In this document: positions 3,880 through 4,089 of the stretch, piece by piece
Position numbering within the stretch: the stretch's first letter is position 1
Layout: every line of letters starts with the position of its first letter
IMG/VR virus record: IMGVR_UViG_2695420523_000003
Reading direction: 5' to 3' (one strand)
Source of the DNA: a virus
Taxonomy: Duplodnaviria; Heunggongvirae; Uroviricota; Caudoviricetes
Length of the DNA stretch: 7,290 bases
Notes under the pieces: generated by a model
The model's input: only the letters and a program-made list of their open reading frames with translations
What the model was told of the DNA's origin: nothing
Database searches by the model: none
Translations under genes and position numbers: made by a program

Positions 3880-4089
3880 ATAAATCACTCTCTTACTGTA
3901 GGGGTAAGAGGATTTTACTATTTTTCTCGCTGTAGGGGTACACGAGAACCACCGAGCCTGATGTGGTTAAAAGACAGGCATACTAATAAACACTGCACTG
4001 TGTATTTATTCCAACGAGTGAATACACGGAGCAATGTCGCTCGTAACTAAACAGGAGCCGACTTGTTCTGATTATTGGAAATCTTCTTT

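Follow-up and report, generated by a model that had tools for sequence, protein, structure and literature searches.

The locus studied here raises the question of what an exact 11-bp direct repeat does in front of a minus-strand open reading frame (ORF) of a phage. The repeat lies in a stretch of 7,290 nucleotides from a member of the Caudoviricetes (IMG/VR record IMGVR_UViG_2695420523_000003), hereafter called the window. The original prediction, made from the letters of the sequence, left the ORF unrecognised and proposed that the repeats are paired sites for a regulator, possibly the ORF product itself, or part of an unusual promoter architecture. We analyzed the conservation of the repeat, the gene behind it, and the promoter and RNA structures in which its two copies are embedded.

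Occurrence and conservation of the repeat

The sequence CTGTAGGGGTA was found twice, without mismatch, on the plus strand of the window, at 3896-3906 (copy 1, hereafter word 1) and 3930-3940 (copy 2, word 2), with 34 bp from start to start. The nearer copy lies 17 nt upstream, in the minus-strand sense, of the ATG at 3879, and similarity between the two copies reaches 16 nt at 88% identity (3891-3906 versus 3925-3940). Both the exactness of the repeat and its position in the control region of a minus-strand ORF were thus confirmed as predicted. The bare statistic of the repeat is weak: at least one exact 11-mer pair within 60 nt occurred in 8.3% of 3000 simulated first-order Markov windows of the same size, and the window itself contains a second exact 11-mer pair, TCCCTCGTTTT, at 534 and 554. 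The latter lies in a region (497-579) with a cluster of GAGGGAT/ATCCCTC inverted repeats, which has the look of an operator-type or iteron-type array.

The repeat at 3896-3940 was taken as real because it is conserved across phages, and not because of the window statistics. Among the IMG/VR matches listed, the pattern CTGTAGGGGT-N(20-30)-CTGTAGGGGT was present in at least 120 contigs, three of which were unrelated coding repeats, and the word pair was accompanied by about 50 distinct flank contexts. A second scan, via the conserved block to the right of the pair, added further cassettes. Lambda and P22 both carry the pair at the corresponding place, so the motif is present at homologous loci.

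Three alleles of the word were identified, namely CTGTAGGGGT (class A), TTGTTGGGGA (class B, for example in Klebsiella phage Kp4882-1), and TTTGACTGTGGAA, which was found at two loci. For each allele, both copies are identical within their own cassette, and the spacing is 32-35 bp. The words of classes A and B are similar to the region of helix 45 in E. coli 16S rRNA (CCGUAGGGGAACC), and the third allele is not; the resemblance is probably coincidental, and mimicry of this helix was rejected as misfitting the three alleles. Sigma-28 and sigma-32 promoters, a CsrA site, and nut or put sites do not fit the three alleles either, and a LexA box also has the wrong spacing.

Genomic context and identity of the cargo gene

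The window represents the leftward early (pL) operon of a lambdoid phage, with the plus strand in the pL sense, and its nearest records are phage ev099 (99.5% identity) and HK446. The pL operon genes N (2991-3392) and ea10 (4136-4504) were identified on the plus strand, together with the cIII thermometer (RF01804, 4564-4622, plus strand), which was the sole Rfam match in the window. A strong plus-strand terminator is located at 4088-4109. The ORF behind the repeat (3385-3879, minus strand) holds the slot taken by sieB in lambda and P22; the cassette lies in the pL operon, downstream of an N-type gene, and is oriented against pL.

The ORF, which had been left unrecognised, was recognised as rip1 (ring-interacting pore 1) through a PDB sequence search. 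Its 164-aa product is 99% identical to Rip1 (PDB 9oox chain L, 164 aa), with one mismatch over residues 3-164 (E=1.4e-105). Searches of the ORF against Pfam, NCBIfam, and PADLOC gave nothing significant, including no Pfam match to SieB; the cargo is Rip1 and not sieB. The PHROGs match was phrog_1244, a family without known function, and the RefSeq label is 'hypothetical protein'. Rip1 is described in a review of 2026, PMC13434031 (citing Patel et al., Nature 651:1060) as a single-protein prophage defence, of which twelve subunits assemble round the 11-mer small-terminase ring of an infecting phage to form a membrane pore; on its own, according to the same account, Rip1 is not toxic.

A homologue of rip1, hkaP, is located behind the same cassette in phage HK620, where it is annotated as a 'putative superinfection exclusion protein'. 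The HK620 locus shares the cargo family and the cassette with the window and shows no substantive difference from it; its record annotates neither a promoter nor an antisense RNA.

Architecture of the predicted rip1 promoter

A -10 element, TAAAAT, was found on the minus strand at 3917-3912, between the two words, and is the positional homologue of TAAACT in the curated P22 sieB promoter. The minus-strand reading of word 1, TACCCCTACAG, would form approximately the 5'-terminal 10 nt of the rip1 mRNA; on this strand, ACCCCTACAG starts 6 nt past the -10. Word 2 overlaps the -35 position, which reads TACCCC (3940-3935, minus strand) and is a poor -35. By analogy with P22, the start site is predicted at approximately 3905, giving a leader of 26 nt.

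The curated P22 promoter (P22virB-3) is noted as the 'sieB RNA start site', and its sequence on the sieB strand is TGTACCCCTACAGCGAGAAATCGGATAAACT. This feature spans TGTACC...TAAACT, which puts the -10 between the copies and the upstream (-35) end of the feature on word 2. The distance from the -10 to the start of the copy 1 complement is 6-7 nt, which places that start near +1 of the mRNA. The same geometry was found in all distinct two-word cassettes, with a minus-strand TAnnnT located 4-7 nt before the identity block in 57 of 57 and a spacing of 32-35. Therefore, the suggestion of an unusual promoter architecture was borne out, as the repeats bracket a conserved -10 that matches a curated promoter. 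The accompanying statement that no convincing -35/-10 pair is present was right in that a good -35 is lacking.

Kinship with the sieB/sas modules of P22 and lambda

The P22 sieB promoter (PsieB) and its antisense RNA, sas, were reportedly described by Ranade and Poteete in 1993. In a P22 RNA-seq study of 2026, the 127-nt sequence P22A-sas holds both copies of CUGUAGGGGU and was read in infected cells only (PMC13397905, Table 2). A review characterizes sas as a cis-acting RNA of 105 nt that switches translation within sieB, by which P22 escapes its own exclusion system (PMC12197685; the switch is also given in PMC7067206). The two copies of the repeat are thus contained in a known antisense RNA, a point that the original prediction had missed.

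The P22 module occupies the same slot, from the N-type antiterminator gene to the ral/ea10 region, and is antisense to pL. It has the same two words 34 bp apart, the -10 in the same place, and a block ending at CAGGCA; from TCTCG at the second stem-loop (SL2, described below) to CAGGCA, 55 of 56 positions are identical between the window and P22. Both homology to sas and a -10 at the position of PsieB were therefore found in the window. The two modules differ in the gene controlled (sieB in P22, rip1 in the window), in the leader (about 31 nt versus 26 nt in the window), in the sequence between the words and the stem of the first stem-loop (SL1), and in the Esc-type internal start of P22, which is not conserved for rip1. 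In lambda, CTGTAGGGGT lies directly upstream of sieB, CTGTAGGGGTA lies 34 bp further, and the same sequence continues to CAGGCA; the lambda sieB promoter has been assigned by homology to P22. In lambda, orf28-ral follow the block, whereas the window lacks orf28 and ral and passes at 3980/3981 directly into the sequence upstream of ea10.

Judged by its sequence, the repeat is the conserved word pair of the known lambdoid module of sieB promoter and sas antisense RNA, here placed so as to control rip1. The kind of module is already known, and the copy in the window is a further member of it.

An in-frame ATG at codon 23 of rip1 is preceded by a perfect GGAGG at 7-nt spacing (3811-3825, minus strand), which recalls the SieB/Esc pair of P22. 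This internal start was absent from Rip1 homologues at 48-52% identity, so the part of the P22 mechanism that acts as a translational switch may not apply to rip1. The cargo is accordingly not a sieB gene with an esc start; membership of the cassette is unaffected by this, since at least 31 cargo families occur behind it.

Predicted structure of the antisense RNA

Alignment with P22A-sas places a putative sas-like antisense RNA at 3876-3980 on the plus strand (pL sense), which would extend from opposite the rip1 start codon and Shine-Dalgarno (SD) sequence to the end of the conserved block. The start site, the RNA, and its ends in this phage are set by analogy. The predicted plus-strand fold consists of SL1, SL2, and a hairpin that is one stem of a possible pseudoknot. 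SL1 (3890-3910) has a CUCUUACU/GGUAAGAG stem round word 1, followed by a U-rich tract, and is terminator-like. Its stem differs with the type of cargo; SL1 as a whole is not consistently conserved, and class B lacks it. Together with the U-rich tract (3889-3911), the SL1 of Rip1-type cassettes scores as an intrinsic terminator on the plus strand, and more weakly on the minus strand, where it would straddle the predicted start site.

SL2 (3924-3948), whose apex is formed by word 2, reads UUCUCG[C]UGUA-GGGG-UACACGAGAA. In contrast to SL1, SL2 is conserved: 94.8% of cells are paired, and 6 of its 9 pairs change on both sides. It is followed by a putative H-type pseudoknot (3949-3979) at the 3' end of the conserved block, with stem S1 formed by CCAC (3949-3952) and GTGG (3963-3966), stem S2 by GCCTG (3956-3960) and CAGGC (3975-3979), and an A-rich loop 3. 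A direct search recovered the pseudoknot at the corresponding position in 48 of 49 distinct tails, and 186 of 196 shuffles were without it. Two-sided compensatory variants were identified for both stems, namely CCAC/GTGG, CCTC/GAGG, CGGG/CCCG, and TCACG/CGTGA for S1, and GCCTG/CAGGC, GCCGGG/CCCGGC, and GCTGGG/CCCAGC for S2. In an alignment of 64 sequences covering SL2 and the pseudoknot, 92.9% of cells pair and 11 of 18 pairs change on both sides; shuffles gave 4.1±1.2 such changes, and none of 500 had as many as the 11 observed. When the partners were slid as a control, pairing dropped to 31-52%.

Both strands of SL2 fold equally well, and for the pseudoknot a comparison by wobble pairs with mirrored loop limits (8 versus 10) gave no strand preference. 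Comparison of minimum free energies (MFE), in which base composition is a confounder, favoured the plus strand for one-word cassettes only (p ~1e-5; one-word cassettes are described below), with p = 0.17 for two-word cassettes. Single-sequence folding of the window region was unremarkable (z = -1.5). The RNA is assigned to the plus strand on the basis of the P22 RNA-seq sequence, and because the block lies upstream of the minus-strand start, where only pL-sense transcription is known to cross.

A Rfam scan (E<=1) gave nothing at 3870-3990, and the structured RNA made up of SL2 and the pseudoknot is without an Rfam family. On the plus strand, neither the window nor P22 showed a sigma-70-like promoter for sas, and the pseudoknot is not followed by a U-tract.

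Distribution of the cassette among phages

In addition to the two-word cassettes, a large one-word class (SfV type) was identified, in which one hairpin, holding a related word in its loop, adjoins the same right-hand block. In this class, the single word is located both in the hairpin loop beside the pseudoknot and at the predicted 5' end of the mRNA, and the minus strand resembles an extended -10 promoter made from the right-hand block itself. The pseudoknot block (CCAC..GCCTG..GTGG..A-rich..CAGGC) is conserved well beyond the repeat (also at 1203-1234, approximately, of locus L128, in L129, and in L130-L221), and in one-word cassettes of SfV-like and Klebsiella phages it heads at least 25 families of small minus-strand ORFs.

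Behind the cassettes, at least 31 cargo families were found, nearly all of them uncharacterised; SieB is the commonest and Rip1 the second. Rip1 occurs behind three cassette types, namely class A, class B, and one-word. Some phages carry more than one cassette: one has a class A and a third-allele cassette approximately 620 bp apart (L095; 129-235 and 753-859), the second of which is followed by a canonical intrinsic terminator, and another has a one-word and a class B cassette (L195). Of 5426 complete E. coli genomes, 988 (~18%) contained sequence of the cassette-plus-rip1 segment of the window (3385-3985), and in 96 of these at least 80% of the segment was covered. Taken together, these comparisons of sequence indicate that the cassette is a portable module across phages.

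Four loci (L142, L145, L191, and L202) lack copy 1 and the cargo gene. Their homology to the window begins inside copy 1 (..AAGGGGGTGAGAGGATTTTAC..) and is preceded by a CCCCC/GGGGG hairpin, a joint that suggests recombination at the word.

Proposed mechanism and alternative explanations

We consider it fairly probable that the word pair of this PsieB/sas cassette controls the abortive-infection pore gene rip1 through antisense RNA, and that the identity of the words keeps the pairing. In the lysogen, rip1 would be expressed rightward from a weak promoter without a good -35. Once the leftward early promoter pL of the same phage becomes active, transcription against rip1 would give a stable sas-like RNA, of which the 5' arm would pair with the rip1 leader, SD sequence, and start codon and turn synthesis off, mirroring the action of sas on SieB in P22. 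Such a shut-off would spare the phage from its own defence, which responds to late phage proteins; because it is triggered by these proteins, Rip1 would need silencing during the phage's own lytic growth, as SieB does. The apex of SL2 would keep its complementarity to the initial 10-13 nt of the cargo transcript and act as a site of nucleation or recognition. The two words would then have to match because the apex must complement the mRNA 5' end, and in two-word cassettes the word would be needed twice because the promoter lies 34 bp further on; in one-word cassettes, complementarity between the loop and the 5' end would be automatic. We therefore infer that identical words serve to maintain complementarity between the antisense stem-loop and the mRNA 5' end. 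Weak points of this proposal are that a cis-antisense sas is already fully complementary through word 1, so that the need for a second site is not obvious, that neither a promoter nor a terminator was found for sas, and that Rip1 homologues do not conserve the internal start of the SieB/Esc type.

Small structured antisense RNAs that block translation of a potentially harmful gene are familiar from lambda OOP-cII, hok/sok, and CopA/CopT, where an apical loop complementary to the target is likewise the proposed site of nucleation. The cassette would differ from these systems in that its proposed recognition sequence is duplicated, which we propose is because the promoter separates the loop from the 5' end of the target, and in that its 3' end appears to be a pseudoknot and not a terminator.

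The original prediction proposed paired binding sites as one reading, and several features of the promoter agree with binding of a phage or host protein to the DNA repeats, near -30 and +5, as an activator or repressor. There is no usable -35 (TACCCC) and word 2 lies exactly there, at the position of a class II activator; word 1 at +1 is at the classic position for a repressor; the spacing of 34 bp is close to three helical turns; and the words are conserved in sequence and not in structure alone. Nevertheless, SieB, Rip1, and at least three further cargo families share one and the same word, and it is found in phages that differ in their repressors and N proteins (lambda, P22, HK620, and ev099), which means that no cognate phage regulator travels with the word; no cognate DNA-binding protein was found to co-occur with the words. 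A single host factor would not explain the two words in one phage (L095), and the direct repeats are without internal dyad symmetry. Since the word is independent of both the cargo (at least five unrelated families) and the immunity type, paired regulator sites are not supported, and we regard this explanation as unlikely. Autoregulation by the ORF product is excluded, as Rip1 sits behind class A, class B, and one-word cassettes alike.

The identity of the copies might also be functionless, either as the relic of a tandem duplication of about 34 bp or as microhomology at a mosaic joint. One-word cassettes do resemble an unduplicated state, lambda homology to the window resumes beside copy 2, and in the four loci without a cargo gene the joint lies inside copy 1. 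However, across about 50 distinct flank contexts the words have remained identical although the sequence between and around them has diverged, and three alleles each keep matched copies with the same geometry, which would require either selection for identical copies or three separate duplications of equal length; we thus see little likelihood of a mere relic. Both words could instead be sites in the plus-strand RNA at which a single RNA-binding protein or ribonuclease acts to process or stabilise sas. It is plausible that sas is processed out of the pL transcript, because it is seemingly without its own promoter and terminator, and both words are located in hairpins in the window; yet the fold around word 1 is not conserved, with an SL1 that varies and is absent in class B, while SL2 is conserved, and a host RNase or chaperone would have no need of three different words. 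This explanation appears very unlikely. Least credible, and in our judgement scarcely conceivable, is an array resembling a type III toxin-antitoxin system (toxIN-like), whose antitoxin would be a protein-binding RNA made of tandem repeats upstream of a toxic gene. It is true that two repeats, about 34 nt from one to the next, lie directly upstream of a gene able to kill the cell, with a terminator-like hairpin between repeat and gene on one strand. This candidate was rejected on its anatomy: the repeated part covers no more than 11-16 of 34 nt, the copies flank the promoter, so that the mRNA contains just one of them, and Rip1 is a pore former and not an endoribonuclease of the ToxN/AbiQ type. 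There was also no PADLOC match.

Implications for prophage defence

Under the antisense mechanism that we favour, the word may further be read as the specificity 'address' of a portable promoter/antisense cassette, with the alleles, of which there are at least three, defining orthogonal groups. This extension is tentative, and we hold it to be possible rather than likely. The cassette would be placed before SieB, Rip1, and about 30 uncharacterised families, including abortive-infection genes and other genes expressed from the prophage, and a match between the stem-loop beside the 3' pseudoknot and the 5'-terminal 10-13 nt of the cargo mRNA would be required. If this is true, one phage could run two cassettes independently, and a superinfecting phage with the same word might silence the defence gene of a resident prophage in trans.

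Possible novelties are the connection of Rip1 with an antisense module for self-immunity, the matched-word alleles, and the unregistered structured RNA, although the 1993 work on P22 possibly describes part of these. Rip1 was first described in 2026 as a pore former triggered by assembled terminase or portal rings of a phage. An induced prophage with rip1 makes such rings itself, and how it avoids premature killing of its host is a natural question; rip1 sits behind the same module that lets P22 escape its SieB, and, if the proposed reading is true, the cassette would be the mechanism of self-immunity to Rip1. These results suggest that the module is a reusable control unit for many uncharacterised prophage genes, and that its matched-word design would provide a testable rule for antisense specificity.
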